DNA from: a virus
Lineage: Duplodnaviria; Heunggongvirae; Uroviricota; Caudoviricetes
Strand: one strand, 5' to 3'
DNA: 38,621 bases
Virus record (IMG/VR): IMGVR_UViG_2541047830_000013
This document shows, piece by piece, positions 2,288 through 38,621 of the stretch (within the stretch, counting starts at the first letter, position 1; each line of letters begins with the position of its first letter). Position numbers and translations under genes: made by a program. The notes under the pieces are model-generated. The model was not told the origin of the DNA. It ran no database searches and saw only the letters and a list, made by a program, of their open reading frames with translations.

Positions 2288-2288
2288 C

Positions 2289-2630: not shown

Positions 2631-2640
2631 CAGGTGCTTT

Positions 2641-2928
2641 ATGACCAAAGACCATGCACAAGGTGTATTTATCCGTTTTATTGATTTTCGCGGTGAACTG
2701 TTATTACGTGCATCCGCTATTGACGGAGTAACTCCGGCGGGTAAAAACGGAGCCGACGAAGCCACTTACGTTTATCTGAACGGCACGCGACTGCTTGTGG
2801 AACTTCCGTACCAGACCGTACGAGAAATCATTAGCGAAGCTGAAAAGGCACGCCAGGTTAATGGCGATGAACCCTATATCGAAATTATTTGTATGGATTC
2901 AGAAGCTGAAATACAGAAAGCAGATTAA
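2641..2928 (+). CDS. Hypothetical early-region protein (95 aa)
   Basis: ATG 2641 is the first Met after the upstream stop; the longer track ORF from 2527 overlaps the previous gene. Confidence 0.5.
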   Translation: MTKDHAQGVFIRFIDFRGELLLRASAIDGVTPAGKNGADEATYVYLNGTRLLVELPYQTVREIISEAEKARQVNGDEPYIEIICMDSEAEIQKAD

Positions 2929-2939
2929 AGGGCGTTGTG

Positions 2940-3182
2940 ATGGGCAAAGAATATAAAACTCTCATTAACAAAGCACTTGAGCGTTTTTATTTTCGCTTAA
3001 GTGCATCAGGCGCTCATGCTGAACGTGCGGCCCGTGACTCATTGACCAGAGCAATCCGAAGTCTGTATGACGTGGCTTTTTACGCTGATGATCTGGATGC
3101 ACTTAACGAACTTTCCGAGCTGATCTGTGCCGCAGAGTGCGGGGAACATATTGAACCGTATAAGCTGGGGAATATCGCATGA
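2940..3182 (+). CDS. Hypothetical early-region protein (80 aa)
   Basis: ATG 2940 (track GTG 2937); stop overlaps the next start as ATGA. Confidence 0.5.
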   Translation: MGKEYKTLINKALERFYFRLSASGAHAERAARDSLTRAIRSLYDVAFYADDLDALNELSELICAAECGEHIEPYKLGNIA

Positions 3183-3292
3183 GTATATTTATCTCATGGC
3201 TTGTTCTGATTATTTCGGTGGCCTGCGCTATTGGGATTATGCGAATTATTCATTCAATAAAAAAGATTGAACGCTTTTTCACTGGCGAATAA
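3179..3292 (+). CDS. Small membrane peptide, 37 aa (below ORF-track cutoff)
   Basis: ATG 3179 with GGGGA 8 nt upstream; single hydrophobic helix ISWLVLIISVACAIGIM. Confidence 0.35.
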   Translation: MSIFISWLVLIISVACAIGIMRIIHSIKKIERFFTGE

Positions 3293-3377
3293 CAGAGCAA
3301 ATAAAACCACAGATTAAATAAGAAAATGTAAAACAATCCGCATTCGCGGAGGTATTCGCACACGCCAAGGAGGCGTA

Positions 3378-3581
3378 ATGGCAATTAAGCATTTTCCTGT
3401 CGTTCGTTTTACCTCCAGAGGGCGTGAATACGAAGTCGACGAACGCCTGATTACCACAATCGACAAACACCGTTCAGAAAAGGATGCACATCACATCTAT
3501 CTCACTGACGGCACTTACTTCTGCGCCACGAATGTGGTGCGGGTGAACCTTATCCGACAGGTACAAGAGTCACGCAGATGA
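3378..3581 (+). CDS. Hypothetical early-region protein (67 aa)
   Basis: ATG 3378 preceded by AAGGAGG. Confidence 0.5.
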   Translation: MAIKHFPVVRFTSRGREYEVDERLITTIDKHRSEKDAHHIYLTDGTYFCATNVVRVNLIRQVQESRR

Positions 3582-3823
3582 CCATTCTGGACTATATCGC
3601 CGCCAATCCGGGGTGTAGCGGTGGAGAAATCGCCGCAGCACTGAATACCCCAACCACAGCCATTAATGCGGAGTTACGCCGACTCTGGCGCAGCGGTTCA
3701 GTCATAAGAAAAGAGCGCAAAACAGGCGGTCGCTTTTCTTACCAGATAAACCCGATGCCGTTCGGGTGCGGCAATCCACTTACCAACATGTTTAACCAGC
3801 TACTGAAGGAAGCCAGAGCATGA
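3578..3823 (+). CDS. Putative small DNA-binding protein (81 aa)
   Basis: ATGA overlap with upstream gene; sequence has a winged-helix flavour (inference only). Confidence 0.45.
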   Translation: MTILDYIAANPGCSGGEIAAALNTPTTAINAELRRLWRSGSVIRKERKTGGRFSYQINPMPFGCGNPLTNMFNQLLKEARA

Positions 3824-4119
3824 GCGCCATCAACCACCAGGAATTACGCGAACTGGCGACTGACCTGCAACGAATGGCAACGCCTCAAAAATTACTGGCG
3901 TTTCGCGCAATGCTCTCGCCGTCTGCTGTGCTGGCGCTGCTGGATGAGCTGGAGCACGCCAGAACCACACCTCTCGCCATTCGCCTGACGCTCCGTCATG
4001 AAATCGAGGATTTCTGCGCGACGTTGGAGGCGCCAGGCGAACCGGAAACGCCGGAAGCAATACAGCAAGAGCTGCTGCAACGCATTGACAAGGTTTTTGA
4101 TTTTTTTCTGAACCACTAA
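3820..4119 (+). CDS. Hypothetical early-region protein (99 aa)
   Basis: ATGA overlap with upstream gene; acidic, helix-rich composition. Confidence 0.5.
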   Translation: MSAINHQELRELATDLQRMATPQKLLAFRAMLSPSAVLALLDELEHARTTPLAIRLTLRHEIEDFCATLEAPGEPETPEAIQQELLQRIDKVFDFFLNH

Positions 4120-4240
4120 GAAACCAGAACATGCACACACAAAAAAACCGCTTGCCATGCCGCAATCAGTCAGGTTACATTTCCGCTGCACCTCACAAAA
4201 CGGGTGCCGGGTTTCGCAGCCTGCTGACTACACAAGCGCA

Positions 4241-4262
4241 CAACCGCGCCAGCGGTTTTTTT
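4241..4262 (+). terminator. Rho-independent terminator-like hairpin (aaccgc-gcca-gcggtt followed by a T7 run)
   Basis: Stem 4242-4247 / 4252-4257, then ttttttt to 4262; lies in a 320-bp stretch with no convincing ORF. Confidence 0.5.
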
Positions 4263-4441
4263 GTGCGTACTGTATTGCCACGTTTTTTTCGCGTCAGAAT
4301 TATGGCGGGGCGTACGGGGCCGACTTCGGTCGGGCCGGGTTCTTGTGTAGCCGGTACTGCGAACCTCGTACGTCTCGCCACCCACAGTTTCGCAGCTCTG
4401 GATGGTGAGTTTTCACAACTTACTACACAAGGGGCCACACC

Positions 4442-4672
4442 ATGGCAAACCGCAAACCACACCGCGCTATCGCGGAGCGTCGTCACATCCAGACTGAAAT
4501 CAACCGCAGACTTTCCCGCGCATCACGCGTCGCGCAAATCATGCACATCAATATGCTGCATGAGCGCAGCCACGCACTATCAAACATTTATTCCGCCTCT
4601 GTTTTCAGCTATCTGGCGGATGATCTGCACGAGCTTCAACAGCTCATCCAGCAGCAAAACAAACTCCATTAA
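4442..4672 (+). CDS. Hypothetical basic protein (76 aa)
   Basis: ATG 4442 with AAGGGG 7 nt upstream; preferred over the overlapping low-complexity 205-aa ORF 4131..4748. Confidence 0.4.
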   Translation: MANRKPHRAIAERRHIQTEINRRLSRASRVAQIMHINMLHERSHALSNIYSASVFSYLADDLHELQQLIQQQNKLH

Positions 4673-8015: not shown

Positions 8016-8975
8016 ATGAAAATTTGTATCGACGACGGCTCCACCAACATCAAGCTGGCATGGACTGAGAATGGCGAACGCCGCAACGCCATCAGCCCGA
8101 ACAGCTTCAAGTCGGAATGGTCTGCGCCGTTCGGTGGCATGCAGCCCGCGAACTACATGCTTGATGGCGTGCGCTATGGTTTTGATCCGGTCAGCGATCG
8201 CTTTGTCCAGACGACCGACACGCAATACCAGTACAGCGATGTGAATGTAATCGCCATTCATCACGCGCTGGTCAAATCAGGCATCACGCCACAAGAGGTG
8301 GATGTGGTTGTCACCCTGCCACTGAGCGAGTATTTCGAGACAAACGCACAGCCGGACATGGCCAACATCAACCGCAAAAAAGCGAACGTTATGCGCTCGG
8401 TGGAGTACCAGAACGGCGAAGCATTCACTATCCGTAACGTGCGGGTTATGCCTGAATCCATTCCGGCTGGCTTTAAAGCACTGGCTGACATGAGTCCGTT
8501 TGAATCCCTGCTGATTGTGGATTTAGGCGGAACCACGCTGGATGTGGCAAAGGTTCAAGGGCAACTGGCAGGTATCAGCCAGGTGTTTTGCGATCCACAC
8601 GTAGGCGTTTCCCTGATGGCCGATGCCGTACTGTCGGTGATGGCCACTAACGGTATGCGCACCAGTCACCACATCGCCAATACCATTATCGAACATCGCC
8701 ATGATGAAGCCTGGCTGCGCCAGCACATCCACAATGACGCGCATTACGCCAGCCTGATGGCGGTTATTCGTGAAAAGGAAGAAACACTGAAACAACGCGT
8801 GATCCGCGCGCTGGCGGTTTTTTCGGGTTACGGGCGGGTGATGGTTGTCGGTGGAGGGGCGGAGATTGTGGCACCCGCTATCCGCGAAGTCTGCGGAGTT
8901 AATGCGACTTTCATCGCGGACGGAGTGCCACAGTTTGCTCTGGTTAATGGGCTGTACGCAATGGACAAGGAGTAA
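8016..8975 (+). CDS. parM: ParM/StbA-like actin-family segregation ATPase
   Basis: N-terminus MKICIDDGSTNIKL closely resembles plasmid R1 ParM (MLVFIDDGSTNIKL) as recalled; actin-fold phosphate motifs DDGSTNIK and DLGGTTLD; GGGA near C-terminus. Confidence 0.85.
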   Translation: MKICIDDGSTNIKLAWTENGERRNAISPNSFKSEWSAPFGGMQPANYMLDGVRYGFDPVSDRFVQTTDTQYQYSDVNVIAIHHALVKSGITPQEVDVVVTLPLSEYFETNAQPDMANINRKKANVMRSVEYQNGEAFTIRNVRVMPESIPAGFKALADMSPFESLLIVDLGGTTLDVAKVQGQLAGISQVFCDPHVGVSLMADAVLSVMATNGMRTSHHIANTIIEHRHDEAWLRQHIHNDAHYASLMAVIREKEETLKQRVIRALAVFSGYGRVMVVGGGAEIVAPAIREVCGVNATFIADGVPQFALVNGLYAMDKE

Positions 8976-8979
8976 ACCA

Positions 8980-9294
8980 ATGACGACACCAACCAGACGG
9001 ATAAGTTTCTATCTGAAGCCCGCCGCCGTCAAGAGTGAACAGGAGGCGTGCAATTACCTCGATAGCCTGCCAGCCTCCGAACGCAGCCGCGCGCAACGCG
9101 CGGCCTTTCTGGCTGGGCTAGCGCTCATAAAGCGCAACCCAGCATTTGCCTACTGGATGGCCGAATGGCCAGAGGACAACCTCCCCTTCAATACCGTTAG
9201 CATCAAGGAAACATACCAGGATAATCAGCCTAGCGGAGTTGAATGCAATTTTTATAAAATAAAAAAGAATATTCAGACCTTATTCCCAGAATAA
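8980..9294 (+). CDS. parR: ParR/StbB-like centromere-binding adaptor
   Basis: LDSLPASERSRAQRAAFLAGLAL resembles R1 ParR LDSIPQGERSRLNRAALTAGLAL as recalled; directly downstream of the ParM-like gene. Confidence 0.7.
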   Translation: MTTPTRRISFYLKPAAVKSEQEACNYLDSLPASERSRAQRAAFLAGLALIKRNPAFAYWMAEWPEDNLPFNTVSIKETYQDNQPSGVECNFYKIKKNIQTLFPE

Positions 9295-9342
9295 TCTGAT
9301 AATTGTATGTGAACTAATAAAATACAGACCAACACATCATTC

Positions 9343-9367
9343 TGGCACCCTTGCTAACAGGGTGCCA
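9343..9367. terminator. Hairpin between convergent parR-like and membrane-protein genes (8-bp stem tggcaccc / gggtgcca)
   Basis: Read directly; no strong U-tract, so terminator function is inferred from position. Confidence 0.35.
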
Positions 9368-9377
9368 ATGTTTCAAA

Positions 9378-10220
9378 TCATGATGAAATTGCCGAAGTTT
9401 TTTTATCGTGCTGAAGTACCGCAAATGCCATTAAAACCTCAAGAGAATAGCGGCGATAATACTTAACAAAACCATAATAAAATACTCGGGATGCAGCAAT
9501 ACAAAACAAGAGAAGAAAACAAAAAGGTAACAGTCTGATATTTATATCTATTAAAAAGGATAGAAGGAGCAGGAACATAAGCAACCAGACTGAAGCGAGA
9601 AAAACAAATGTAATGTTTCTACAAAAACCATACAAAGCAACATAGTTTTGCATTTTCACCTGATGATTTTTAGAATGTTCATACACATAATGATAAGCAA
9701 GGCGAAAAAGATCGCCCCTCAAGCCCTTACGTCGATATAGCGTAGATACAGAAAAAACATTTATATAACCATCTCGTATTTGCGGCCAAAAGACTTTAAT
9801 AAGTATAGAATGCAGTGTGGTTTTATGATGTTCTGCTTTATCAAAAGCTGATACAGGAAATAAAAAAACTCCACGAATAAAATTAACTATACTGAACTTA
9901 GTATTATGTCGTTTTATTTTCAGGGAGCTTCTTTTAGAAAACAGATAAATTGAAGGATACCCAAGTTTACTGTTCATGTATTTTTCAATTAAACAGGATG
10001 ATAGAATAGATATGAAGTGACCTGAAATATATGATAGAACGATTAATACCACATATATAAATACACTTATTATTTCTTTATATTTCAGGATATGGTTAAG
10101 AATACCTTCTATATAAACAGGGTTAATTTCAATAGAAAACAAAAAAAGGATAAACAGGAATAACCCACCTGGAATTAGATAGCCCAAAAAGTCATAAAAT
10201 GAAAACGGATTCTGTGTCAC
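9378..10220 (-). CDS. AT-rich multi-pass membrane protein (280 aa), function unknown
   Basis: At least 4-5 hydrophobic helices; strongly AT-rich relative to the phage backbone; GTG start with AGGGGGAA upstream; second gene of a minus-strand pair. Confidence 0.6.
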   Translation of the reverse strand: MTQNPFSFYDFLGYLIPGGLFLFILFLFSIEINPVYIEGILNHILKYKEIISVFIYVVLIVLSYISGHFISILSSCLIEKYMNSKLGYPSIYLFSKRSSLKIKRHNTKFSIVNFIRGVFLFPVSAFDKAEHHKTTLHSILIKVFWPQIRDGYINVFSVSTLYRRKGLRGDLFRLAYHYVYEHSKNHQVKMQNYVALYGFCRNITFVFLASVWLLMFLLLLSFLIDINIRLLPFCFLLLFCIAASRVFYYGFVKYYRRYSLEVLMAFAVLQHDKKTSAISS

Positions 10221-10429
10221 ACTTCCCCCTGTGTTACTTGTAAATTAAAGGGTAAAACATTATTTGTTTTTCCGTAAAGGATTAGCTTTCCATCTTCTTA
10301 CTAACCATTCGAATTCTTGATATGTAGTATCCGAATTAATGCTTTCTCTGATTGCTTTAATTAATGGCTCGGCAATATCATATGTCTCTACAACTGTTGT
10401 GTAAGATGTTCTTTTTATCATTTTTTCAT

Positions 10430-10438
10430 CATAAATAC
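10430..10438. repeat. Left copy of 9-bp target-site duplication cataaatac
   Basis: Identical to 11496-11504, immediately flanking the IS ends. Confidence 0.85.
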
Positions 10439-11495
10439 GGCTTTGTTGAATAAATCGAACTTTTGCTGAGTTGAAGGATCAGATCACGTATCTTCCCGAC
10501 AACGCAGACCGTTCCGTGGCAAAGCAAAAGTTCAAAATCACCAACTGGCCCACCTACAATAAAGCCCTCATCAACCGTGGCTCCATAACTTTCTGGCTGG
10601 ATGATGAAGCTATTCAGGCCTGGTATGAGTCAGCAACACCTTCTTCACGAGGCAGACCTCAGCGCTATTCTGACCTTGCCATCACTACTGTGCTGGTCAT
10701 TAAACGCGTATTCAGGCTGACCCTGCGGGCTGCGCAGGGCTTTATTGATTCCATTTTTTCTCTGATGAACGTTCCGCTACGCTGCCCGGATTACAGCTGT
10801 GTCAGCAGGCGGGCAAAGTCGGTTAATGTCAGTTTCAAAACGCCCACCCGGGGTGAAATCGCACACCTGGTAATTGATTCCACCGGGCTGAAGGTCTTCG
10901 GTGAAGGCGAGTGGAAAGTCAAAAAGCATGGCCAGGAACGCCGCCGTATCTGGCGTAAGCTGCATCTCGCCGTTGACAGTAAAACACATGAAATCATCTG
11001 CGCTGACCTGTCGCTGAACAACGTTACGGACTCAGAGGCCTTCCCCGGGTTAATCCGGCAAACCCACCGGAAAATCAGGTCAGCCGCCGCCGATGGCGCT
11101 TACGATACCCGGCTATGTCACGATGAACTGCGGCGTAAGAAAATCAGCGCGCTTATCCCTCCCCGAAAAGGTGCGGGTTACTGGCCCGGTGAATATGCAG
11201 ACCGTAACCGTGCAGTGGCTAATCAGCGAATGACCGGGAGTAATGCGCGGTGGAAATGGACAACAGATTACAATCGTCGCTCGATAGCGGAAACGGCGAT
11301 GTACCGGGTAAAACAGCTGTTCGGGGGTTCACTGACGCTGCGTGACTACGATGGTCAGGTTGCGGAGGCTATGGCCCTGGTACGAGCGCTGAACAAAATG
11401 ACGAAAGCAGATATGCCTGAAAGCGTGCGTATTGCCTGAAAACACAACCCGCTACGGGGGAGACTTACCCGAAATCTGATTTATTCAACAAAGCC
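10439..11495 (+). mobile_element. IS903 (IS5 family), complete 1057-bp copy
   Basis: Terminal inverted repeats ggctttgttgaataaatcg at 10439 and its reverse complement ending at 11495; 1057 bp; single transposase ORF; perfect 9-bp direct repeats on both sides. Confidence 0.9.
10516..11439 (+). CDS. IS903 transposase (307 aa from GTG)
   Basis: Sequence recalled as IS903/IS102-type transposase; track ORF begins at TTG 10471, likely GTG 10516. Confidence 0.85.
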   Translation: MAKQKFKITNWPTYNKALINRGSITFWLDDEAIQAWYESATPSSRGRPQRYSDLAITTVLVIKRVFRLTLRAAQGFIDSIFSLMNVPLRCPDYSCVSRRAKSVNVSFKTPTRGEIAHLVIDSTGLKVFGEGEWKVKKHGQERRRIWRKLHLAVDSKTHEIICADLSLNNVTDSEAFPGLIRQTHRKIRSAAADGAYDTRLCHDELRRKKISALIPPRKGAGYWPGEYADRNRAVANQRMTGSNARWKWTTDYNRRSIAETAMYRVKQLFGGSLTLRDYDGQVAEAMALVRALNKMTKADMPESVRIA

Positions 11496-11504
11496 CATAA
11501 ATAC
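11496..11504. repeat. Right copy of 9-bp target-site duplication cataaatac
   Basis: Identical to 10430-10438. Confidence 0.85.
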
Positions 11505-11837
11505 CTTCACGAATACTTACAGCAACTCGCTCGTAAAAATTTAAAATATATTGAAATTTTCGACGCTCGGCCATTTCTTCATCTGTTATTATGCAACCAT
11601 CACAAGGAAAAACATAAGAACGAAATGATTTGCCTGAACGATGCACTTGTTTCAGGGTATGCAATGACTCTATATATTGCATATCTTGCCGACTCTCAAA
11701 AAGAAAGTTGGCCGTTTGAGTTTTTTTTGCGGTACGCACATTGTAGATAATGGTTCCAATGGCAACCAAAACGCCAAGCAGAACAATAGCATTGCTGATG
11801 ATTTGTAGTGTTATTGGGTTCATCCTATTTCATCCAT

Positions 11838-11864
11838 AAAAAAGGCGGGGAGCAAATCCCCGCC
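11838..11864 (-). terminator. GC-rich hairpin with U-run on the minus strand (ggcgggga-gcaaa-tccccgcc); possible cos-proximal element
   Basis: Stem 11844-11851 / 11857-11864 with a T6 run on the minus strand; minus-strand core GAGGCGGGGA matches part of the P2 cohesive-end sequence as I recall it. Confidence 0.4.
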
Positions 11865-12020
11865 TCATTAGAGGTCAACGTAGCTTAGAAACCATCAAAT
11901 TCATCATACATTTTTTTCATATCAACCCCCTCATAGAAATCATAACCACGTTTTGTGGTTTTTGTGACGTATAAACTACATCAAAGGCAAGCCACGGTCA
12001 AATATATAGGCATGCTTACC

Positions 12021-12050
12021 TGCACAAAAGTGCACAAATTTGCACAATTT
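12021..12050. repeat. Three TGCACAA direct repeats at exact 10-bp phase
   Basis: tgcacaaaag / tgcacaaatt / tgcacaattt at 12021, 12031 and 12041; a fourth TGCACAA at 12113 and a GGATCCGT doublet at 12091/12102; non-coding region between cargo and portal. Confidence 0.4.
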
Positions 12051-12420
12051 TTTTGAACGACTTTTTACCCTTCCGGCCCGCATGGCGGCTGGATCCGTCA
12101 AGGATCCGTGTGTGCACAAAAAAACGCGCTTTTTCTGCGCGCAGGTGACGGGGGAACAGCCCGCGTTTCAGGGGGTAAATAGCATTCCCTGAACGATGTC
12201 GCAGCGACACAACAGAATGGCTGTATTTCTCACACTGAGCGTGAAAAAGACGTGGGGGTTTTTGATTTGATGGGGTGACAGATAAGGCTGTCAAAATCGC
12301 ACTGAGGCGGCGAGAACATGCAGTCAACGCGGTGGGATTGCGTAAGAGCCTGACCGTCGATGATGGCGATAAGCTGGAAGACGTCGTGAAATTATCTGAT
12401 TGATACAGGAGCTGGAGAGT

Positions 12421-12471: not shown

Positions 12472-13518
12472 TCAGGATGTGGGCTGGGTGTCCAGCAGTG
12501 CGTAAGGGTTAAAGCGGATCACCTCTTCGCCAAGCCAGTCATTGATATGCTTCATGGCCTCCATGACGGGCATCAGCTCGTTAATTGCGTAAACCCGCGC
12601 GGCCTTCTCCACATCACCAAACGCACTTTTTTCGCCCGGCATCGCCCCCATCAGTTGCGGCGGAACGCGGTGCGCGGCCAGCACATCATCACGGGATGCC
12701 GCCTTAACATTCATAAACTCATCCTTTGCGGTGATCTGCTGGAACGGCAAAATTTGCACACCTTCTTTGCCCCCATTGGGCGCATGAATGAGCACGTTTT
12801 TAAATGCACCACCACCACGCGCACCCTGTAACGTTTCTTTCAGGGAGTCCATGCTTTCGCGGTTTACCTGCGCTGCACCGATGTAGATGATGCACCCGGC
12901 GTGGGATCCGTTGTCGTAGTACAGTTTTCTGAACATGTCCGCCGAATGAGACAGGCTGGCCGAGAGTAATGCGCCAAGATATTCCGGCATGCCGTAGATT
13001 TCCTGGTTAATATCCGGATTCATCAGGTGGCACACTTTGCCAGGGCGAAACTGAAACGCCTCCTTGCCATCCTGCACATACCACCATGATTCAAGATCGC
13101 TTCCGCGTCGCATGTATTTCGCCAGGGCGTGCCGTAATTTAAGCGGTTCGCCGAGCATATTGCTTCGAAGCTCAAGGAATGCGTTACCGAACACAAACCA
13201 GTCCAGCGCCAGCGCCGAGAAATCCTGCCGGGAAAGCAGCGGATGCGGAATATAGCAGCCGAGCAATACATTACGCTTAAAGTAAAGCGCAGACTGATGC
13301 CAGGACGTTTGCCGGGCAGCTCTTGCCAGACCGTACCAGTCCACCGGAGTTTCATACCATCGCCCGTTATCAGCACAGTACATATTGTCCAGCAGGTCAT
13401 GCCCGGTCAGGCGGTAAGGACCATCAAATGTGAATGCACTGAGCGACGATTCTTTCCTGAGCGCATCAGCGAGATCAATGCGTGAACTCATGCGCACTTT
13501 TTTATTTTTTCTGCTCAT
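12472..13518 (-). CDS. Q: Portal protein (P2 gpQ-like)
   Basis: 348 aa, size and position match P2 Q; ATGA overlap with the upstream terminase gene. Confidence 0.9.
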   Translation of the reverse strand: MSRKNKKVRMSSRIDLADALRKESSLSAFTFDGPYRLTGHDLLDNMYCADNGRWYETPVDWYGLARAARQTSWHQSALYFKRNVLLGCYIPHPLLSRQDFSALALDWFVFGNAFLELRSNMLGEPLKLRHALAKYMRRGSDLESWWYVQDGKEAFQFRPGKVCHLMNPDINQEIYGMPEYLGALLSASLSHSADMFRKLYYDNGSHAGCIIYIGAAQVNRESMDSLKETLQGARGGGAFKNVLIHAPNGGKEGVQILPFQQITAKDEFMNVKAASRDDVLAAHRVPPQLMGAMPGEKSAFGDVEKAARVYAINELMPVMEAMKHINDWLGEEVIRFNPYALLDTQPTS

Positions 13519-32521: not shown

Positions 32522-32678
32522 AGCTTCAGCCCCTTGTATCCGTTAAATGATTCAGCAACAATCATCACCCACCACGCGCGTAATCTCACCCCTGCGCTAT
32601 TCTCCCGCCACGGCGACAACAAAAAGCAGTAACCCCCTCCGCACGCACATGCGACCATGCCGCACAGGGAGGGAACAG

Positions 32679-33779
32679 ATGACCGACACCACCATGCAAT
32701 TGCTCAGTCAGGGCACAGACCCCGTGAAAATGCCGGATTTTGATATTCTTGCGGAGGGTAAAACGCTGTCAGGCGTGGCAGAGCGCCTGATGAGCCTGTC
32801 ACTGACCGACAACCGGGGATTTGAAGCAGACCAGCTCACCATCACGCTGGATGATGCAGATGGTCAGTTGCAGCTACCGCCACGGGGCGCACGCCTGACG
32901 GTTCTCATTGGCTGGAAAGGCGAACCGCTGACAGAAAAAGGCACTTACATTGTTGATGAAATCGCTCACGAAGGACCACCGGACAGGCTGACTGTTTCAG
33001 CCAGAAGCGCAGATTTTCGGGATGAATTTAACGTTAAACGAGAGGTGTCCTGGCATGATGTGACCGTTGAGCGTGTGGTATCCGCCATCGCTCATCGGTA
33101 CGGTCTGAAACCGCAAATCAGCGAAATGCTGATGGATATCGAAATCGACCACGCCGACCAGACCGAAGAGAGCGACATGTCCTTCCTTACGCGCATGGCG
33201 GAAATGCTGGGCGCAATCACCACGGTAAAAAGCGGTAATCTGTTATTCATCATGCCCGGTGGTGGCGTGAACGCACAGGGCCAGCCGTTGCCATCGTTCG
33301 CCATTACACGCAGCAGCGGCGATCGCCATCAGTTCCGCATTGCTGACCGCGAGGCGTATACGGGGGTACGCGCCTACTGGCTTGATCTTAATTACGGGAA
33401 AAAGAAAAAAGTCAGCGTGAAACGCCGCAAACCGAAAAAAGAGAAAAGCAGCAGCCGTGAAGGTGACTATATGGAAGGTGCGGAAGGCAACGTGTTTGTG
33501 TTACGCAAGACTTATCAGAACGAGCAGGCAGCAAGACGCGCAGCGGCGGCAAAGTGGCAGCAGCTACAACGCGGAGCCGCATCATTTTCCATCACGCTGG
33601 CGCGTGGACGTGCAGAACTCTACCCCGAAATGCATGGCACGGTAACAGGATTTAAAAGCGAGATTGATAATCAGGACTGGATTATTGCAAAAGCCGAGCA
33701 CACCATTGATAACAGCGGCTTTACCACGCAGCTTGAGCTTGAGGCAAAAATCCCGGAATGGATAGCAGAAACAGCGTGA
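32679..33779 (+). CDS. D: Late control / tail protein D (P2 gpD-like)
   Basis: ATG 32679 with AGGGAGGG 5 nt upstream; the track ORF from 32547 adds a low-complexity N-terminus. Confidence 0.85.
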   Translation: MTDTTMQLLSQGTDPVKMPDFDILAEGKTLSGVAERLMSLSLTDNRGFEADQLTITLDDADGQLQLPPRGARLTVLIGWKGEPLTEKGTYIVDEIAHEGPPDRLTVSARSADFRDEFNVKREVSWHDVTVERVVSAIAHRYGLKPQISEMLMDIEIDHADQTEESDMSFLTRMAEMLGAITTVKSGNLLFIMPGGGVNAQGQPLPSFAITRSSGDRHQFRIADREAYTGVRAYWLDLNYGKKKKVSVKRRKPKKEKSSSREGDYMEGAEGNVFVLRKTYQNEQAARRAAAAKWQQLQRGAASFSITLARGRAELYPEMHGTVTGFKSEIDNQDWIIAKAEHTIDNSGFTTQLELEAKIPEWIAETA

Positions 33780-33832
33780 ATGTCTTAAATGTATTAGTTC
33801 AGATATGTACTAGCAATAAACATAGTTAGAAA

Positions 33833-33848
33833 GGCCGCTAACGCGGCC
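33833..33848. terminator. GC hairpin between convergent D and the DUF3800-like gene (ggccgc-taac-gcggcc)
   Basis: Read directly; A/T-rich flanks. Confidence 0.4.
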
Positions 33849-33870
33849 ATATTAATTAAAACTCCAGTTA

Positions 33871-35040
33871 CTAATATTGAGAAAGATAATCAGCGACTCC
33901 ATCTGCAGGGTTTCGCCCACCAGTATAAATTGTGCCTAATTCTTGAGGTGTAACATATGTTGTAGGCCAAATGGCCATATTTTTAAAATAGTTATCTATT
34001 TTTATTCTTTGAAGTTCTTTAAAGAGATAATCTTCTAAGTCATTTCTTTTTAGACAGTTAACATAATAAGCAGCCGCACTTGCTACTATATCTACAATTT
34101 GTAATTGAGGATACTCTTGTGATGAATGGAATGTCAAAGAACGAGCTTTAATTGGCAATTCAAATTTTCTTCGATCATAACCATATGCCTCCGTAATTTT
34201 TGATATATCCATAAATTTATCAAAAATATCTTTCTTCTCTGTAATAGCTTTGGAATCGTCATGCTTAATATAAAAACCATTAGGGTATAATTTACCCCAT
34301 TCTACACAGTGTCTAAAGAGGCTTGGTATAGATGGATCTAATGTGCTTTTCTCAACACCTTCCAATATATCATCAATATCGCTTCTGGTAATACTAATTC
34401 TGTTTATTATATCTGTGAATATCTTATCACTTGAGCATATCTTTAACTCATCAATTACCCTGTAAAATTCATCAATTGACTCAGTCGATTGGCTTCTGAT
34501 CATATTCATAAAACACTGATACATTACCTCTGTTTTTTCCTCCCCACAGAAAGCAGGGAAACAGAAATAGTAAACATTAGACAGAGCTAGATTCTGTCCA
34601 TTTATATAAAGATCTATTCCTCTATTAGAGCACCACGTCTCGATCAAAATATCAACAATCTTTGCTGTTAGCATGTATTTTTTATCGACCAAGTATATTT
34701 TAACATTCTCTTCATTGACATATTTGCTTTCAAGAAGCCTAATGATGCCATCCTGACCAGATTTTCTACGTCTAAGAGTTTTAAAGTGGGCTTCTGTTGG
34801 AGACTTGCTTCCGGTTAGTTCTAATGCCTTAAGCGCATCCTGTTTACTAATACTACTTGAACTTAAGGTAAAAACAGGTTGCAATGGATCGAGTAAATTT
34901 CCGCCAGTATTACCTGATTCATCAAAAAATATATCAGGCTTTATATACAACATTTTATTTATCTTTGCCGCTAAGTTTCTTTTTTTCTCATTTTCTCGCT
35001 TAATTTTATTATCTCGCCTACGTTGACTATTCTTTCCCAT
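33871..35040 (-). CDS. AT-rich accessory gene, DUF3800-like protein (389 aa)
   Basis: ATG 35040 with GAGG RBS; N-terminal FFDESGNTG and C-terminal LQIVDIVASAA resemble DUF3800 family motifs as I recall them; much more AT-rich than the flanking D and ogr. Confidence 0.6.
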   Translation of the reverse strand: MGKNSQRRRDNKIKRENEKKRNLAAKINKMLYIKPDIFFDESGNTGGNLLDPLQPVFTLSSSSISKQDALKALELTGSKSPTEAHFKTLRRRKSGQDGIIRLLESKYVNEENVKIYLVDKKYMLTAKIVDILIETWCSNRGIDLYINGQNLALSNVYYFCFPAFCGEEKTEVMYQCFMNMIRSQSTESIDEFYRVIDELKICSSDKIFTDIINRISITRSDIDDILEGVEKSTLDPSIPSLFRHCVEWGKLYPNGFYIKHDDSKAITEKKDIFDKFMDISKITEAYGYDRRKFELPIKARSLTFHSSQEYPQLQIVDIVASAAAYYVNCLKRNDLEDYLFKELQRIKIDNYFKNMAIWPTTYVTPQELGTIYTGGRNPADGVADYLSQY

Positions 35041-35272
35041 AAATACCTCACAATCTGAATTAGATATCCCAATTTAACGCATTAATAACATAATGTTATG
35101 ATATCACACAATCAAAATAACGTGCTGATTTTAATGTATCAGGTTTGACTAGCTATTCTTTGATAAGCGAATAATAAGAATGTCAGCCCCTCAACTCAAA
35201 GCGGTTTAGTCAGTTGGAATCGGAGCTAGTAGAACTTAAAATAACAGAAGCACCACGTTAAGGGAGGTCTCT

Positions 35273-35533
35273 ATGTTCCGTTGTCCGCTTTGTGGCGCAT
35301 CTGCCCGTATCCGCACAAGTCGTCCGGAAAATGATTCAAACACCGTGCGGCAAAAGTATTACCAGTGTAACAACCTGGAATGCGGCGTATGCTTCTCAAC
35401 ACTGGAAGCCTTCCATAAATTCACATCAAAACACGCCTCCGCCGTTCACTCTTCAGAAGGTATCCCGTGGCATGAGCTGCCAGCTTCACACAGGGGAAAC
35501 AATCAGATGAGTTTGCCTTTACCTCAGAACTAA
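35273..35533 (+). CDS. ogr: Late gene activator Ogr (zinc-finger)
   Basis: MFRCPLCGA...YQCNNLECGVCF gives a Cys4 arrangement matching P2 Ogr; AGGGAGG RBS. Confidence 0.85.
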   Translation: MFRCPLCGASARIRTSRPENDSNTVRQKYYQCNNLECGVCFSTLEAFHKFTSKHASAVHSSEGIPWHELPASHRGNNQMSLPLPQN

Positions 35534-35723
35534 CAGGCAGAATTGCCGGAGTAACAAAAAAGCGATAGATTACGCGCGGGTGCCTTTCGGCTGATGGTCG
35601 GAGGGAATACCCGATGGCCGGATGTGGAAAGGCCCCGGAAAACACTTTTGTTTAACCGAGGCCCTAACCGTCTACCCTAAGCAAGTGATAGGTTAGCGCC
35701 TCCCCGAAAAAGGAGCAAGCGCT

Positions 35724-35864
35724 ATGTCGCAAAAATCGCTTACGGCCATCACGTTCTGCGTGACGGTAATCCTCATCATCTGGATGCTGCACGGTTCGCT
35801 GTGTGAAATACGGATGAGCTTCTGGGGAGCGGAGTTTGCGGCGTTCTTACAGTGTAAGCAGTAA
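35724..35864 (+). CDS. Hok/Gef-family type I toxin (46 aa)
   Basis: MSQKSLTAITFCVTVILIIWMLHGSLCEIRMSFWGAEFAAFLQCKQ: one TM helix then SLCE...AAFL.C, the Hok-family pattern; AGGAG 8 nt upstream; below ORF-track cutoff. Confidence 0.7.
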   Translation: MSQKSLTAITFCVTVILIIWMLHGSLCEIRMSFWGAEFAAFLQCKQ

Positions 35865-35874
35865 GGAAACCGCG

Positions 35875-35894
35875 ACGGGGGAGTAATCCCCCGT
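35875..35894 (+). other. Stable hairpin just 3' of the hok-like ORF (acggggga-gtaa-tcccccgt)
   Basis: 8-bp GC-rich stem; consistent with a structured hok mRNA 3' end. Confidence 0.45.
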
Positions 35895-36126
35895 CAATCG
35901 GTTGCTAGGGTAAGGTCGATAAGGCACCCTATCTCACAGCTCTAAATGCCAAAATTCCATGAAACTGTGGGATTTTTGCATCACATACTGATACAGACCA
36001 GCCCTTCTATATGCCTCACTCTATACCAGCTAATCAATTGACACTTATCAATAAAAATAAATCTGATAAAATCAAAATGTTTTGTAACAAATATCAACTC
36101 GTATTAATCCAAAGGAGGCGGATTAC

Positions 36127-36459
36127 ATGGCATTAATCAAATGTCCTGAATGCCAGAAAGAGGTGAGCGATTCAGCATTGTATTGCCCTGCTTGTGGTAA
36201 ACAACTGCAAAAACTTAAGCGTTCATTTTTTGGACGGATCATTAAGTGGGTTTTTATATTATTTAATATTTTTATGATCTATACGCTTTTAGTTGGACTA
36301 GGAGGCACTAGTGAAATAATAAATAATGCCACATCCGATGCCGAAAAAGCCGGTGCAGTTATTGGTACAGGCTTAGGTTTAATTACCATTGGAAGCTTAT
36401 GGGTTATTGGCGATATCATTATCGGAATTTTAGTATTTCTTACTAAACCAAAGGGATAA
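36127..36459 (+). CDS. Zinc-ribbon membrane protein (110 aa)
   Basis: N-terminal CPEC-x13-CPAC zinc ribbon then two hydrophobic helices; strong AAAGGAGG RBS; AT-rich. Confidence 0.6.
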   Translation: MALIKCPECQKEVSDSALYCPACGKQLQKLKRSFFGRIIKWVFILFNIFMIYTLLVGLGGTSEIINNATSDAEKAGAVIGTGLGLITIGSLWVIGDIIIGILVFLTKPKG

Positions 36460-36463
36460 TAAA

Positions 36464-37357
36464 ATGAAAAATATAATTTTTTCTATAGGTGCATCATTTA
36501 TATCAATTAGTGTACTGCCTGTTCACGCAGCAACTGAACATAAGAACTTCAATGCAGTACTCCAGTGCCGAGCAATAGAAAATAATAAAGACAGACTTTC
36601 TTGTTACGATAAGTCAATACAACCGACTCGAACGAAAGTTGCTGAAAAATTCGAAAGCAGAGATCAATGCCCTGATGAGAAAGATGATGATAGACGTTTA
36701 TCTTGTTATGATCGTTTCTTTTCTCCAACATTTACTCCATCTGTAAACTCAAAATCTAAAACGGAAAAGCCAGTAACAACAGAGGCTCAGCAACCAAATC
36801 TTTCTGAGATATCTAAATGTCGTGCAGAAAATGATAAAGAAGCTAGACTAAACTGCTACGATAAACTATTCCCACAGGATAAAATCGTTCAAGCTGAATC
36901 AAAATTAGAGAAAGCCACAGATGTAGGAAAATGGCACACATCCATTACTACATCGCCAATTGATGATTCGAAAAATGTAATTTTATCGTTAGAAAGTGAT
37001 GATTATATCAGAACTCCATTTGGAGAAGCGGTTACTCCTACTCTTTTTATAGCTTGCCGAGAAAAGAAAACCGAAGTATTTCTTAGTTGGGATGTATATT
37101 TAGGCCTTGAACAAACCAGCATGCTTTATCGCCTTGATAAACAGAAAGCAGTTGAGCGAAACTGGCTAGTATCTACAGATACAAAGGCTGTTTTTTATAA
37201 AGGTAATGACATTGATTTCATCCGAAAACTAGCCAACTCAAGCAAAATGTATACAAAAATAACGCCTTATAATGAGAGCCCCGTAAGTGCAACTTTCAAT
37301 TTAAACGGCCTGTCAAACGCGCTAAAACCGCTTCAAGCTGCTTGTAACTGGAAATAG
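36464..37357 (+). CDS. Secreted protein with three Cys-containing repeats plus a C-terminal domain (297 aa)
   Basis: Signal peptide ending VHA-A; three repeats of the form C-x8-RLSCYD-x-F/I (QCRAIENNKDRLSCYDK, QCPDEKDDDRRLSCYDR, KCRAENDKEARLNCYDK); 5 nt after the upstream gene. Confidence 0.6.
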   Translation: MKNIIFSIGASFISISVLPVHAATEHKNFNAVLQCRAIENNKDRLSCYDKSIQPTRTKVAEKFESRDQCPDEKDDDRRLSCYDRFFSPTFTPSVNSKSKTEKPVTTEAQQPNLSEISKCRAENDKEARLNCYDKLFPQDKIVQAESKLEKATDVGKWHTSITTSPIDDSKNVILSLESDDYIRTPFGEAVTPTLFIACREKKTEVFLSWDVYLGLEQTSMLYRLDKQKAVERNWLVSTDTKAVFYKGNDIDFIRKLANSSKMYTKITPYNESPVSATFNLNGLSNALKPLQAACNWK

Positions 37358-37385
37358 TATTAAATCATGTGGCTTAGCCACAATC

Positions 37386-37429
37386 ACAGATAACACAAAG
37401 CCCGTGAAAACGGGCTTTGTGTTATCTGT
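37386..37429. other. Perfect 19-bp stem hairpin (6-nt loop) between last cargo gene and attR
   Basis: acagataacacaaagcccg-tgaaaa-cgggctttgtgttatctgt read directly; a smaller hairpin tgtggc-tta-gccaca precedes it at 37369-37383. Confidence 0.5.
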
Positions 37430-37440
37430 AACTCGAAAAT

Positions 37441-37459
37441 GTGGTCACTGCGTGGACAC
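37441..37459. repeat. attR core, right copy of the 19-bp direct repeat
   Basis: gtggtcactgcgtggacac; single mismatch to 11-29; marks the phage/host junction. Confidence 0.6.
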
Positions 37460-37625
37460 GCGCTGACATAAATCCTTTTACATCAATAAATTAAGTCATC
37501 ATTTTTTTCATCAACAAGGATTTTCACGTTTGTGTTACCTGTATGAGACGAGAGTTAACCAGACAAGTGTGCCATAATCTCGCGGCCAGGCATACTTGCG
37601 AAGATTTCAGGTATAAGGATACGTA

Positions 37626-38621
37626 ATGATACAACCTATTTCCGGCCCTCCTCCTGGGCAACCACCAGGCCAGGGAGATAACCTGCCGTCTGGCGCGGGC
37701 AATCAGCCTTTATCCAGTCAGCAACGTACTTCGCTGGAAAGCTTAATGACGAAAGTGACCTCACTGACGCAACAACAAAGAGCAGAACTGTGGGCGGGTA
37801 TCAGGCACGATATTGGTCTGTCGGGAGATTCACCGCTGCTTTCGCGTCACTTCCCTGCCGCTGAGCACAATCTGGCGCAACGTCTGCTGGCCGCGCAAAA
37901 AAGCCATTCTGCCCGCCAGCTTTTAGCGCAATTAGGGGAGTATTTACGTCTGGGGAATAATCGTCAGGCGGTCACGGATTATATCCGTCATAACTTTGGT
38001 CAGACGCCGCTGAATCAGCTCTCACCGGAGCAATTAAAGACCATTCTCACCCTGTTGCAGGAAGGGAAGATGGTTATTCCGCAACCTCAGCAGCGCGAGG
38101 CGACCGACCGTCCGTTATTACCGGCGGAGCACAATGCGCTCAAACAGCTGGTGACCAAACTTGCGGCGGCAACGGGAGAACCCAGCAAGCAGATCTGGCA
38201 ATCGATGCTGGAACTTTCCGGGGTGAAAGATGGCGAGTTAATTCCAGCGAAACTGTTTAACCATCTGGTGACCTGGCTACAGGCGCGTCAGACGCTAAGC
38301 CAGCAAAATACGCCGACGCTGGAATCACTCCAGATGGCGCTAAAACAACCTTTAGATGCCAGTGAACTGGCGGCGTTATCGGCATATATCCAGCAAAAAT
38401 ATGGCCTTTCTGCGCAATCATCGCTTTCTTCTGCCCAGGCCGAGGATATTCTTAATCAGCTTTATCAACGGCGGGTTAAAGGGATTGAGCCGCGTGATAT
38501 GCAACCGCTGCTTAATCCTTTTCCACCGATGATGGACACGTTGCAAAATATGGCAACGCGTCCCGCGCTGTGGATACTGTTAGTCGCGATTATCCTGATG
38601 CTGGTCTGGCTGGTTCGTTAG
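37626..38621 (+). CDS. flk: Host gene, probable Flk (flagellar regulator, C-terminal membrane anchor)
   Basis: N-terminus MIQPISGPPPGQPPGQG and hydrophobic C-terminal tail ALWILLVAIILMLVWLV match my recollection of enterobacterial Flk; typical host GC content; outside the att repeat. Confidence 0.55.
   Translation: MIQPISGPPPGQPPGQGDNLPSGAGNQPLSSQQRTSLESLMTKVTSLTQQQRAELWAGIRHDIGLSGDSPLLSRHFPAAEHNLAQRLLAAQKSHSARQLLAQLGEYLRLGNNRQAVTDYIRHNFGQTPLNQLSPEQLKTILTLLQEGKMVIPQPQQREATDRPLLPAEHNALKQLVTKLAAATGEPSKQIWQSMLELSGVKDGELIPAKLFNHLVTWLQARQTLSQQNTPTLESLQMALKQPLDASELAALSAYIQQKYGLSAQSSLSSAQAEDILNQLYQRRVKGIEPRDMQPLLNPFPPMMDTLQNMATRPALWILLVAIILMLVWLVR

Follow-up and report, generated by a model that had tools for sequence, protein, structure and literature searches.

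A DUF3800 gene with a predicted RNase H-like fold carried as mobile single-gene cargo between D and ogr of a P88-like E. coli prophage

In a P88-like (Xuanwuvirus, P2-family) E. coli prophage, the tail gene D and the late-gene activator gene ogr are separated by an AT-rich, horizontally acquired insert, and the one gene within it, which encodes a DUF3800 protein, is mobile cargo. The protein is a member of the DUF3800 family with a predicted RNase H-like fold, and we regard it as somewhat probable that the cassette encodes a nuclease which the lysogen expresses and which suffices by itself, as a single gene, for anti-phage defence or exclusion. Positions given here are those of the window, the whole stretch of 38,621 nt of viral DNA (IMGVR_UViG_2541047830_000013) that was analysed; the O104:H4 outbreak lineage carries the same cassette. 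As a family, DUF3800 has an RNase H fold and is widespread; it recurs with retrons, CRISPR and orphan RNAs, with an activity that has only been predicted so far. The searchable literature has it in two roles only, as an accessory with a predicted RNase H fold in type VII retrons and at Cas12a2/Cas12a3/Cas13 loci, and as the neighbour of 11 RNA motifs (PMC7736814, PMC10910872, PMC12669027, PMC13594972, PMC5737381). These accessory and neighbour roles agree with a preliminary description of this DNA, according to which the family has no established function. A search of the literature found no experiments on a DUF3800 protein that stands alone, no paper with the accession WP_000517778 and no later functional study of the RNA motifs drum, skipping-rope or DUF3800.

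The insert measures 1,453 bp (33780..about 35232), in keeping with the earlier estimate of about 1.5 kb, and was delimited by setting its boundaries against the empty site of P88 (TGA/GGAACTTAGAATAGCGACAG...ogr) and five other cargos. From 33750 to 35250 the G+C content is 0.31-0.35, whereas D has 0.52-0.57 and ogr 0.51 (0.33 for the cassette set against 0.53), which bears out the AT-richness given in the preliminary description. On the left lies D (late control D/baseplate hub; 32547..33779, plus strand; Pfam Phage_GPD, E = 2e-17), whose true start is possibly downstream of 32547, and on the right lies ogr (35273..35533, plus strand; Pfam Ogr_Delta, E = 4.7e-14). In P2, ogr and its promoter come directly after the F-operon/D region, the arrangement that the preliminary description had taken as its reference, and attP comes after ogr.

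The ORF list places one gene in the insert and no further one: a reading frame of 389 aa with an ATG start on the minus strand (33871..35040), antisense to the late operon, exactly as had been claimed. It matches PHROG 12991 (E = 7e-187), and RefSeq annotates its product, WP_000517778.1, as a 'DUF3800 domain-containing protein.' Full-length homologues of 42-85% identity give dN/dS values of 0.08-0.11; the gene is real and under purifying selection. Its ribosome-binding site, GAGGT, read from the sequence 4 nt before the ATG (35045..35049, minus strand), is kept as (G)GAGGT in enterobacterial homologues. About 130 nt 5′ of the ATG, a consensus scan detected the promoter-like TTGAGT-17-TATTAT (35171..35199, minus strand; 9/12 matches), located inside a block of ~130 nt that is ~70% conserved with the Klebsiella/Enterobacter cassettes. 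A terminator scan found the G+C-rich hairpin GGCCGC-TAAC-GCGGCC (33833..33848) between the stop of D (33779) and that of the DUF3800 ORF (33871), common to both convergent transcripts, and since the same hairpin and T-run follow homologues of 81-85% identity, it belongs to the cassette. Between the ORF and ogr (35273) lie 232 nt of non-coding DNA, with no ORF of at least 20 aa in the orientation of the gene, overlaps aside. The ribosome-binding site, the hairpin convergent against D and the separate upstream region had all been proposed beforehand, and each was confirmed.

The gene occurs in 36 of the 5,426 complete E. coli genomes, always in the D-ogr slot and in exactly one copy per carrying genome, whereas near-identical D/ogr flanks are found in about 1,400 E. 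coli genomes and, of seven close P88-like phages, five have nothing in the slot. These counts place the gene with the cargo and not with the phage backbone, as had been supposed. Its variable presence, foreign composition and own expression signals are those of prophage hotspot cargo ('moron'). All 36 copies are at least 99.9% identical, and because of this the acquisition appears recent and selection within E. coli is unassessable. Such a recent arrival might be a neutral or silenced passenger that has no phenotype here, regardless of what its relatives do in other settings. In E. coli, H-NS typically silences foreign AT-rich DNA, and a gene at 33% G+C may be open to such silencing; moreover, the 2011 outbreak strains carry an IS5 element 186 bp upstream of the gene, apparently without consequence for the strain. 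We nevertheless consider a passenger unlikely, given that all 36 genomes, those of diverse non-O104 strains among them, retain an intact ORF, that the whole family is under strong purifying selection, and that P2 hotspot cargo is reportedly replaced, not left to decay (PMC13586616).

Family membership is clear from Pfam DUF3800 (PF12686), which is matched with 41.2 bits against a gathering score of 21 (E = 3.5e-10; profile positions 2-148/149), and PF12686 is present in the precomputed annotations of all homologues. The resemblance had been proposed from two motifs, FFDESGNTG and LQIVDIVASAA, and both are found in the ORF, at residues 38-46 and 313-323, respectively. Conservation was read from an alignment of 23 sequences with 42-85% identity. 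All seven residues of DESGNTG (codons 40-46; 34903..34923, minus strand), the N-terminal DE motif on predicted beta-1 (strand 36-42 of the AF2 model), are invariant in this alignment, as are Q314 and D317 of QIVD (codons 314-317; 34090..34101, minus strand), the C-terminal QxxD motif, with which helix 311-332 begins. The DE motif is characteristic of the family, for which the C-terminal QxxD has also been defined (Mestre et al., PMC7736814). A further invariant acidic pair, where a core strand ends, stands in HDDS (codons 260-263; 34252..34263, minus strand; model strand 256-261), a candidate third carboxylate that may be catalytic. The product is a soluble protein, and the best structural matches of its AF2 model (pLDDT 83.5, pTM 0.81) are RNase HII/HIII, so that the RNase H-like fold anticipated for it is recovered in the predicted model. 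Invariant acids occupy the secondary-structure positions expected for a DEDD carboxylate tetrad, with D40/E41 on beta-1, D261/D262 after the core strand and D317 at the helix start; mapped by secondary-structure position only, the putative RNase HII/HIII-like catalytic core would comprise D40-E41, HDD 260-262 and Q314/D317.

At the sequence level the protein stands apart from type 2 RNases H (RNase HII/HIII/eukaryotic H2A). Pfam RNase_HII gave no match at E up to 1, and a sequence search of the PDB likewise yielded no match at E up to 1. When the family alignment was compared by hhalign with E. coli RnhB, the outcome was uninformative (probability 0.2). In structure space, Foldseek against BFVD gave weak matches only, one of them to another phage DUF3800 protein. 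Unlike in type 2 RNases H, the GRG junction-recognition motif is not conserved in the DUF3800 clade and extra domains are present, and whereas type 2 RNase H is a housekeeping gene, the prophage DUF3800 is accessory, mobile and AT-rich. A helical insertion of roughly 100 residues separates core elements in the alignment and the AF2 model, and a Lys/Arg-rich N-terminal helix (codons 1-32; 34945..35040, minus strand), modelled at residues 3-32 with pLDDT 78-88, is specific to the gammaproteobacterial clade. Its basic character is kept in 22 of the 23 homologues, with M1, S5 and R9 nearly invariant, and it is missing in most of the wider family, whose members (~360 aa) start at profile position ~33.

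A profile search for the DUF3800 family returned 1,746 representatives at 50% clustering (E up to 1e-3), and a second search for homologues, word-indexed and made with the profile, returned the same tight clade as the first one. Homologues are co-located with defence genes, a descriptive association: one occupies the classical old/tin defence hotspot of another P2-like phage, with gpA on one side and the portal gene on the other, one follows D together with Fic and an AAA_15/21 ATPase, and others adjoin Septu PtuA/PtuB and BrxC/D-like genes, stand between a TIR protein and Hachiman, or adjoin an MmeI-like restriction-modification gene and an AAA_13 ATPase. Others reside on plasmids and Tn3-family elements. 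In Photobacterium/Vibrio the homologues are integron cassettes, with attC-like repeats (TAACAAAG...GCGTTA) on either side, in arrays spaced at 570-1,340 bp, and thus resemble the integron cassettes known to carry defence genes (10.1101/2024.07.02.601719; PMC12614218); DUF3800 is not mentioned in the integron studies searched. The E. coli copy differs in that attC-like sites are missing from it and an integron integrase from its prophage.

The defence or abortive-infection reading, which the preliminary description had drawn from the context of a single gene at a module boundary, is strengthened by these findings, short of proof. An RNase H-like fold would suit any hybrid-processing role, and the gene might instead serve the phage, as a counter-defence or replication accessory that clears retron msDNA, R-loops of CRISPR effectors, or primers. 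Hotspots also carry anti-defence cargo, a few anti-restriction/anti-CRISPR genes being reported in P2 (PMC13586616). Service to the phage seems to us rather improbable, however: lysogen-expressed genes are usually laid out in this way, antisense and with a promoter-like site and terminator of their own, anti-defence genes are rare in P2-like phages (28/1,511; PMC13586616), and most homologues sit in non-phage islands, integron arrays and plasmids, beside defence systems, where a replication accessory would make little sense.

The protein has no conserved protein partner, no family being common to more than five among 114 neighbouring proteins, and the mobile units leave no room for a second gene because they measure only 1.3-1.5 kb. 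The protein could alternatively be half of a system that works with a structured ncRNA (guide, antitoxin or substrate) from the 232-nt upstream region. RNA motifs are known beside other DUF3800 genes, 11 different ones in addition to drum and skipping-rope (Weinberg et al., PMC5737381), in type VII retrons DUF3800 goes together with an ncRNA and a reverse transcriptase (PMC7736814), and the upstream ~130-170 nt are conserved among enterobacterial cassettes. However, scans found no RNA partner. Rfam, including DUF3800-I to -XI, gave no match in 33000-38621 at E up to 10 and none at the gathering score in nine homologue loci; the upstream 170 nt fold no better than shuffled sequence (z = +0.66), their consensus fold is weak (-6.3 kcal/mol) with a positive covariation term, and no tandem repeats of the type III antitoxin kind were found. 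Moreover, flanks are not conserved between clades, and the integron form takes up 1,335 bp for a gene of 1,203 bp. A dependence on RNA is on all this evidence quite improbable.

Comparison with known DUF3800 systems likewise sets the prophage protein apart. It has PF12686, the DE and QxxD motifs, a predicted RNase H2-like fold and a mobile or defence-associated location in common with the retron VII and TPR-DUF3800 CRISPR proteins (PMC7736814, PMC10910872, PMC12669027), and differs from both in its basic N-terminal helix and helical insertion. Unlike type VII retrons, it is a stand-alone protein of ~390 aa, with no RVT domain and no neighbouring reverse transcriptase or ncRNA, and the Q of QxxD, which is missing in the type VII retron DUF3800 (PMC7736814), is invariant in the prophage clade. 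Unlike the TPR-DUF3800 proteins of Cas12a2/Cas12a3/type VI-F loci, it has no TPR Pfam match and no cas neighbour, its neighbours being D and ogr, and none of the RNAs of the DUF3800-associated systems (DUF3800-I to -XI, drum, skipping-rope) is found at the gene by Rfam. No family of PADLOC-DB 2.0.0 (2023) was matched at E up to 1 and no NCBIfam model was matched; hence no tested defence system is homologous. Two more points speak against the defence reading: a full-length homologue is absent from all 50,697 GenBank phage records, and a gene of such low G+C may be kept silent by H-NS.

For the single-gene defence cassette we infer that the protein is an active nuclease, what it cleaves, that the lysogen expresses it and that the phenotype is anti-phage; these points could be connected as follows. 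Its own promoter, antisense to the late operon, would make expression possible in the lysogen. The protein would then act as a metal-dependent nuclease on a nucleic-acid structure from an incoming phage or other mobile element, with an RNA-DNA hybrid or junction, or else a structured RNA, as the likeliest substrate. By cutting it, the protein would stop the element from replicating or kill the infected cell, and the lysogen population would be protected. More tentatively, and with somewhat more doubt than belief, we suggest that the ~390-aa clade may be the first stand-alone DUF3800 defence system, in which one protein both senses and cleaves an infection-specific RNA-DNA hybrid or structured RNA through an RNase HII-like site and a basic helix, and whose minimal cassette of 1.3-1.5 kb spreads between defence islands, plasmids, integron arrays and the hotspots of prophages. 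If the gene does confer phage resistance, a single-gene family would be added to the known defences, with a hint at the accessory role of DUF3800 in larger systems; if it does so as a stand-alone system, it would offer a biochemical handle on an unexplained partner of retrons, Cas12a2/a3 and Cas13 loci, and >11 orphan RNA motifs. The E. coli copy is a convenient experimental entry, being a compact, partnerless gene in a well-studied host and in a prophage common to the O104:H4 lineage.

The D-ogr slot accommodates at least six unrelated single-gene cargos; it is empty in most related prophages and otherwise holds PIN, HEPN-like, ParA-family, YecA-family or other single genes, of which the ParA-family and YecA-family occupants are not obviously defensive. 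The left slot boundary, ATGTCTTAAATGTATTAGTTCAGA (33780..33803; left-end alignment of six variants), is common to six unrelated cargos and holds a copy of the empty-site core (A)ACTTAGA. The right boundary, CAAAGCGG..TCAGTTGGAATCGGAG..GAACTTAAAATAACAG (35190..35250; right-end alignment), is also common to six cargos and includes a promoter-like TTGGAA-17-TAAAAT on the plus strand (35214-35242), with -35/-10-like hexamers 5′ of ogr. That a repeat of the target core, AACTTAGA, bounds the insert, and that the gene is found in many unrelated mobile contexts, would fit a selfish mobility enzyme with an RNase H fold, whether transposase, integrase or homing nuclease, which transfers the cassette encoding it into sites like the D-ogr junction. 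However, identical boundaries surround five unrelated cargos without a DUF3800 gene, and for this reason they belong to the slot, not to the DUF3800 gene. The structural matches to RNase HII/HIII, not transposases, and the single copy per E. coli genome also argue against self-mobilization, and the Vibrio-type arrays have attC-like sites usable by an integron integrase. No inverted repeats were found at the insert ends. A terminal-inverted-repeat reading, taken from a MAFFT alignment, was dropped: when left windows were compared with reverse-complemented right ones, all 300 shuffles were exceeded in only one of six cargos (YecA-family), while the DUF3800 cargo reached 15/26 matches against a shuffle maximum of 17. 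A mobility enzyme is on the whole very improbable.

P2 hotspots serve as a reservoir for defence genes (PMC9122126, PMC13586616, 10.1101/2024.10.15.618418), and the DUF3800 cassette resembles their cargos (old, tin, Z/fun, DUF4238) in being one foreign gene with its own signals at a module boundary, swapped in sister phages (PMC9122126), with a DUF3800 homologue in the old/tin slot itself. The D-ogr slot differs in not being among the two classical hotspots; it is probably within the 'third hotspot' that Egorov and Atkinson place between a tail protein and CI (10.1101/2024.10.15.618418). The mechanism of cargo swapping at P2/P4 hotspots was called unknown in a 2026 survey (PMC13586616), and the D-ogr slot is a clean, simple example of such swapping in P2-family phages. 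The ~90-nt inter-module repeat, once considered as a common E. coli REP-type element, is present in 20 of 5,426 genomes, in a single copy each, and was rejected as such.

The DUF3800 gene is an ORF of 389 codons on the minus strand of the window (33871-35040), located between the tail gene D (Pfam Phage_GPD, E = 2e-17) and the late activator gene ogr (35273-35533; Pfam Ogr_Delta, E = 4.7e-14). G+C content drops from 0.52-0.57 in D to 0.31-0.35 over 33750-35250 and returns to 0.51 in ogr. A ribosome-binding site, GAGGT (35045-35049), is found 4 nt 5′ of the ATG, a G+C hairpin of six pairs (33833-33848) separates the D stop (33779) from the convergent stop of the DUF3800 ORF (33871), and the non-coding gap of 232 nt that separates the ORF from ogr holds a promoter-like site on the strand of the DUF3800 gene (TTGAGT-17-TATTAT, 35199-35171). 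Hence the AT-rich gene with its own ribosome-binding site, convergent hairpin and separate upstream region is present as the preliminary description had read it. In P2 itself, ogr with its own -10 signal directly follows the tail operon, and attP lies behind ogr. The nearest sequenced phages to the window are P88-like (Xuanwuvirus and Gemsvirus, family Peduoviridae), and in P88, Chuche, Shae_phiSM, PhiR44_2 and P884B11 the site is empty, the ogr leader beginning within about 20 nt of the D stop (TGA followed by GGAACTTAGAATAGCGACAG-CACCACGTTAAGGGAGG). Aligned to this empty site, the window carries 1,453 extra bases, from 33780 to about 35232, confirming an insertion relative to the P2 and P88 gene order.

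In its genomic layout, the DUF3800 insert is an ordinary cargo gene at a hotspot of a P2-family prophage. The empty arrangement (span of about 3.16 kb) prevails among the prophages of a spread sample of E. coli matches, and others carry a different single gene in the slot between D and ogr: a PIN-domain protein (500 aa, plus strand), a YecA-family protein (379 aa, plus), a ParA-family protein (352 aa, minus), a protein of phage 500465-2 with a sub-threshold RiboL-PSP HEPN match (340 aa, minus), a protein of phage 520873 with no family named (132 aa, plus), and several further variants annotated as hypothetical proteins only. Boundaries were aligned for six cargo variants, the window and the cargo loci L025, L026, L129, L130 and L131, which represent the DUF3800, PIN, YecA-family, ParA-family, HEPN-like and 132-aa cargos. 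All six share a left boundary of about 24 nt behind the D stop (consensus GCAACTTAGATGTATTAGCTCAAA, window 33780-33803) and a right boundary of about 45 nt before the ogr leader (..CAAAGCG..TCAGTTGGAATCTGAG..CAACTTAGAATAGCGGCAG, window 35190-35250), so that the empty-site core AACTTAGA stands at both ends of the occupied slot; since the six cargos are unrelated, these boundaries are a property of the slot and not of the DUF3800 cassette. The repeated core points to one of two processes, the swapping of cargos at a landing pad or a deletion from repeat to repeat. Transposon-like cassette ends are not claimed, because a terminal-inverted-repeat test scored above every shuffle in only one of the six cargos and was negative in the other five; a selfish mobility enzyme was considered among the possible roles of the protein. 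Published hotspots of P2 are the gpA-gpQ interval, a region inside the tail genes (Z/fun) and sites close to int/att (PMC9122126, PMC13586616).

Of the 5,426 complete E. coli genomes, 36 carry the gene, always in the D-ogr slot and as a single chromosomal copy at least 99.9% identical to the others, and D/ogr flanks at 95-99% identity occur in about 1,400 genomes. This agrees with the earlier reading of the gene as cargo, the slot being mostly empty in relatives or filled by unrelated single genes. Carriers include the O104:H4 strains 2009EL-2050, 2009EL-2071, 2011C-3493, C227-11 and HUSEC2011, and unrelated isolates from human, dog, calf, river and seawater; the RefSeq entry is WP_000517778.1, “DUF3800 domain-containing protein.” No full-length homologue was present in the GenBank phage records searched. 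The E. coli gene looks like one recent acquisition travelling with its prophage. As a separate observation, 2011 O104:H4 outbreak genomes, including 2011C-3493, C227-11 and HUSEC2011, carry an IS5/ISKpn26 element of 1,199 bp (locus L002, 3031-4225) at CTAG 35226-35229, which the 2009 O104:H4 isolates lack. Its target lies 44 bp 5′ of ogr and 186 bp 5′ of the DUF3800 ATG, between a -35-like TTGGAA (35214) and a -10-like TAAAAT (35237), both facing ogr. The insertion could detach ogr from its promoter and disable the activation of the prophage's late genes.

Outside E. coli, the homologue of Klebsiella, Enterobacter and Kosakonia (85% identity) resides in an island with a P4-type integrase adjoining ssrA/smpB, in the order BrxC/D-like gene and DEAD helicase, Septu (PtuA at E = 7.5e-172, with an HNH partner), DUF3800. 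An Aeromonas tRNA island carries a TIR_2 protein, DUF3800, a CHAT-like protein and then Hachiman HamA with its helicase, and in Methyloprofundus and metagenomes DUF3800 is accompanied by a pentapeptide-repeat protein, an MmeI-like restriction-modification gene and an AAA_13 ATPase. The Yersinia homologue adjoins an FRG-domain protein in Tn3-family or plasmid DNA, and those of Shewanella and Acinetobacter are plasmid-borne. Two other P2-like elements carry a homologue: phage L122 (44% identity) has the order gpA, C5 methyltransferase, DUF3800, portal, terminase, which is exactly the old/tin hotspot, and L119 (51% identity) has D, Fic, AAA_15/21 ATPase, DUF3800. A portable defence module would be expected to show such a distribution; a role in the service of the phage or in counter-defence was also considered.

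The homologues of Photobacterium damselae (L021, 2-4337) and Vibrio (L038, 532-3901), at 44-45% identity, form cassettes of integron-type arrays on the chromosome, with attC-like repeats (TAACAAAG...GCGTTA) on either side, spaced 568-1,335 bp apart. Many further Vibrio homologues come from contigs 1.3-2.6 kb long, the length to be expected if assembly breaks at these repeats. In the enterobacterial islands with the 85%-identical homologue, a repeat of about 90 nt (TCCGCTCYTGGCACAGAGCGGAC...AGGTCTGCT..GAGCG....GCGGACAT) stands in constant orientation behind each module, including the BrxC/D-like gene with helicase, Septu and DUF3800 (copies in L003-L008 at 3111, 5784 and 7264, in L029 at 804, 3784, 5264 and 6629, and in L030, L032 and L114/L115). 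The HEPN-like cargo in phage 500465-2 is flanked by a partial copy (L025, 1454-1485), and E. coli strain 1409 has another next to a CBASS operon (L127, 7001-7064). Found in 20 of the 5,426 E. coli genomes, one copy each, it is not a common REP-type element, and may be a module-boundary element in the shuffling of defence cassettes.

The DUF3800 protein is self-sufficient and works alone. The two nearest ORFs on each side at 35 homologue loci gave 114 distinct proteins, among which no Pfam or PADLOC family occurred in more than five; the commonest was phage integrase. A hidden RNA partner was considered here: no Rfam family, DUF3800 RNA motifs included, was found near the gene, the upstream 170 nt show no greater folding stability than their shuffles (z = +0.66), six upstream regions give a weak consensus fold without supporting covariation, and no tandem repeats were found at the gene. 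Flanks are conserved only within the enterobacterial clade, where the conserved stretch covers about 170 nt 5′ of the gene and, with the terminator hairpin, 120-145 nt 3′ of it. The mobile unit is minimal in three independent settings: it measures 1,453 bp in the window and 1,481 bp between the repeats of Klebsiella-type arrays, and in Photobacterium it is an integron cassette of 1,335 bp around a gene of 1,203 bp. The gene is not a component of a type VII retron, because it has neither reverse transcriptase nor msr/msd RNA, nor is it a CRISPR-associated TPR-DUF3800, because both the TPR domain and the cas gene are absent.

The protein is a bona fide DUF3800 member. The family resemblance first noticed in the sequence is borne out by Pfam DUF3800 at 41.2 bits against a gathering score of 21 (residues 37-325), and PHROG 12991, of unknown function, matches from residue 33 onward (E = 7e-187); no PADLOC or NCBIfam model matches. 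Full-length homologues at 42-85% identity are found in Klebsiella, Citrobacter, Enterobacter, Serratia, Proteus, Yersinia, Pseudomonas, Aeromonas, Shewanella, Halomonas, Vibrio, Photobacterium and Psychrobacter. A 23-sequence alignment (mean column identity 64%) has among its invariant residues D40-E41-S-G-N-T-G46, E83, H85, K87, R91, K93, K127, D130, E134, H260-D261-D262-S263, D289-R290-R291, Q312, Q314 and D317, which include the DE and QxxD motifs characteristic of DUF3800 (Mestre et al., PMC7736814). Against five homologues, dN/dS is 0.08-0.11; a silent passenger was considered as a rival reading of the gene. The wider family numbers 423 representatives at a cut-off of E = 1e-30 and 1,746 at one of 1e-3; the majority, of about 360 aa, have no counterpart to the first 32 or so residues, and therefore the Lys/Arg-rich N-terminal helix is specific to this clade. 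One IMG/VR viral contig (L120) carries two convergent paralogues, 2101-3288 (plus) and 3358-4518 (minus), adjoining a tape-measure-like gene.

An AlphaFold2 model built on the family alignment (mean pLDDT 83.5, pTM 0.81) predicts a long N-terminal helix (residues 3-32), strands 36-42, 56-62 and 113-119, helix 120-139, an insertion of five helices (146-251), strand 256-261, more strands at 283-305 and helix 311-332. The nuclease-like fold that had been proposed for checking is recovered: the model matches RNase HIII 2d0a, human RNase H2A 3puf, E. coli and S. aureus RNase HII, human RNase H1, Aquifex RNase HIII and the RNase H domain of HIV-1 reverse transcriptase, with RNase HII as the top, weak Foldseek match (E = 0.075), in line with earlier modelling of other DUF3800 proteins (PMC7736814, PMC10910872). 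The fold is like that of type 2 RNases H, but the protein is not a member by sequence. By topology, invariant acidic residues occupy the RNase H carboxylate positions (first strand, end of a core strand, start of the next helix) and may be catalytic.

The gene runs antisense to the late operon and has a promoter-like site, a ribosome-binding site and a terminator of its own, a layout usual for those prophage genes that are expressed in the lysogen, where it too would be expressed. Its product is proposed to be a nuclease that depends on metal and has an active site like that of RNase HII/HIII. With the basic helix aiding nucleic-acid binding, it would cut RNA-DNA hybrids, RNA-DNA junctions or structured RNA made when another phage or mobile element infects, leading to exclusion or abortive infection. 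What the analysis establishes is the fold, the motifs, the selection, the status as cargo and the self-sufficiency; the activity with its substrate, the expression and the phenotype are inferred. We regard this proposal as a whole as moderately probable; that it is the first stand-alone DUF3800 defence nuclease is a more tentative claim, which we hold somewhat short of probable. The preliminary description and its interpretation are supported, making the gene a sound, testable candidate rather than a surprise. In the literature searched, a stand-alone DUF3800 clade with such mobility was neither tested nor named as a defence system, and what is new here is this clade, with its mobility pattern, as a putative defence gene.

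The window as a whole is a P2-family prophage, with integrase (1-1020), gpA (5117-7939), portal (12472-13518), and sheath, tube and tape-measure genes upstream of D. Four genes occupy its classical gpA-portal hotspot (8016-12327): an actin-type ATPase of ParM/StbA-like type (8016-8975), a protein of 280 aa with a weak Csx27-like match (9378-10220, minus), a transposase of the IS5 family (10471-11439) and, again on the minus strand, a DUF4760 protein (11485-11823). No complete known defence system was matched among them. Directly behind ogr is a hok/sok-type toxin-antisense module (35578-35864), with an Rfam sok match of 43 bits, under the gathering score of 59 (E = 2e-7), and a 46-aa ORF annotated as Hok/Gef or MokW-like in related records. 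Beyond hok, a second AT-rich block (36127-37357, G+C 0.33-0.39) encodes a membrane protein of 110 aa with a zinc ribbon (PHROG 6586) and a protein of 297 aa that combines a VasI domain (associated with type VI secretion) with repeats containing cysteine. The zinc-ribbon gene follows hok in phage 500465-2 as well, and in O104:H4 genomes hok is followed directly by ihfA; the block is probably a further cargo region between ogr and the prophage end. Gene D of the window is one unbroken ORF of 1,233 nt (32547-33779). In RefSeq, D of the O104:H4 prophage (L001, 5227-6080) is an 801-nt CDS of the “VgrG/Pvc8 family” preceded by a 93-nt pseudogene fragment, and other records give 1,101 nt, reflecting either inconsistent annotation or a frameshift in some strains.
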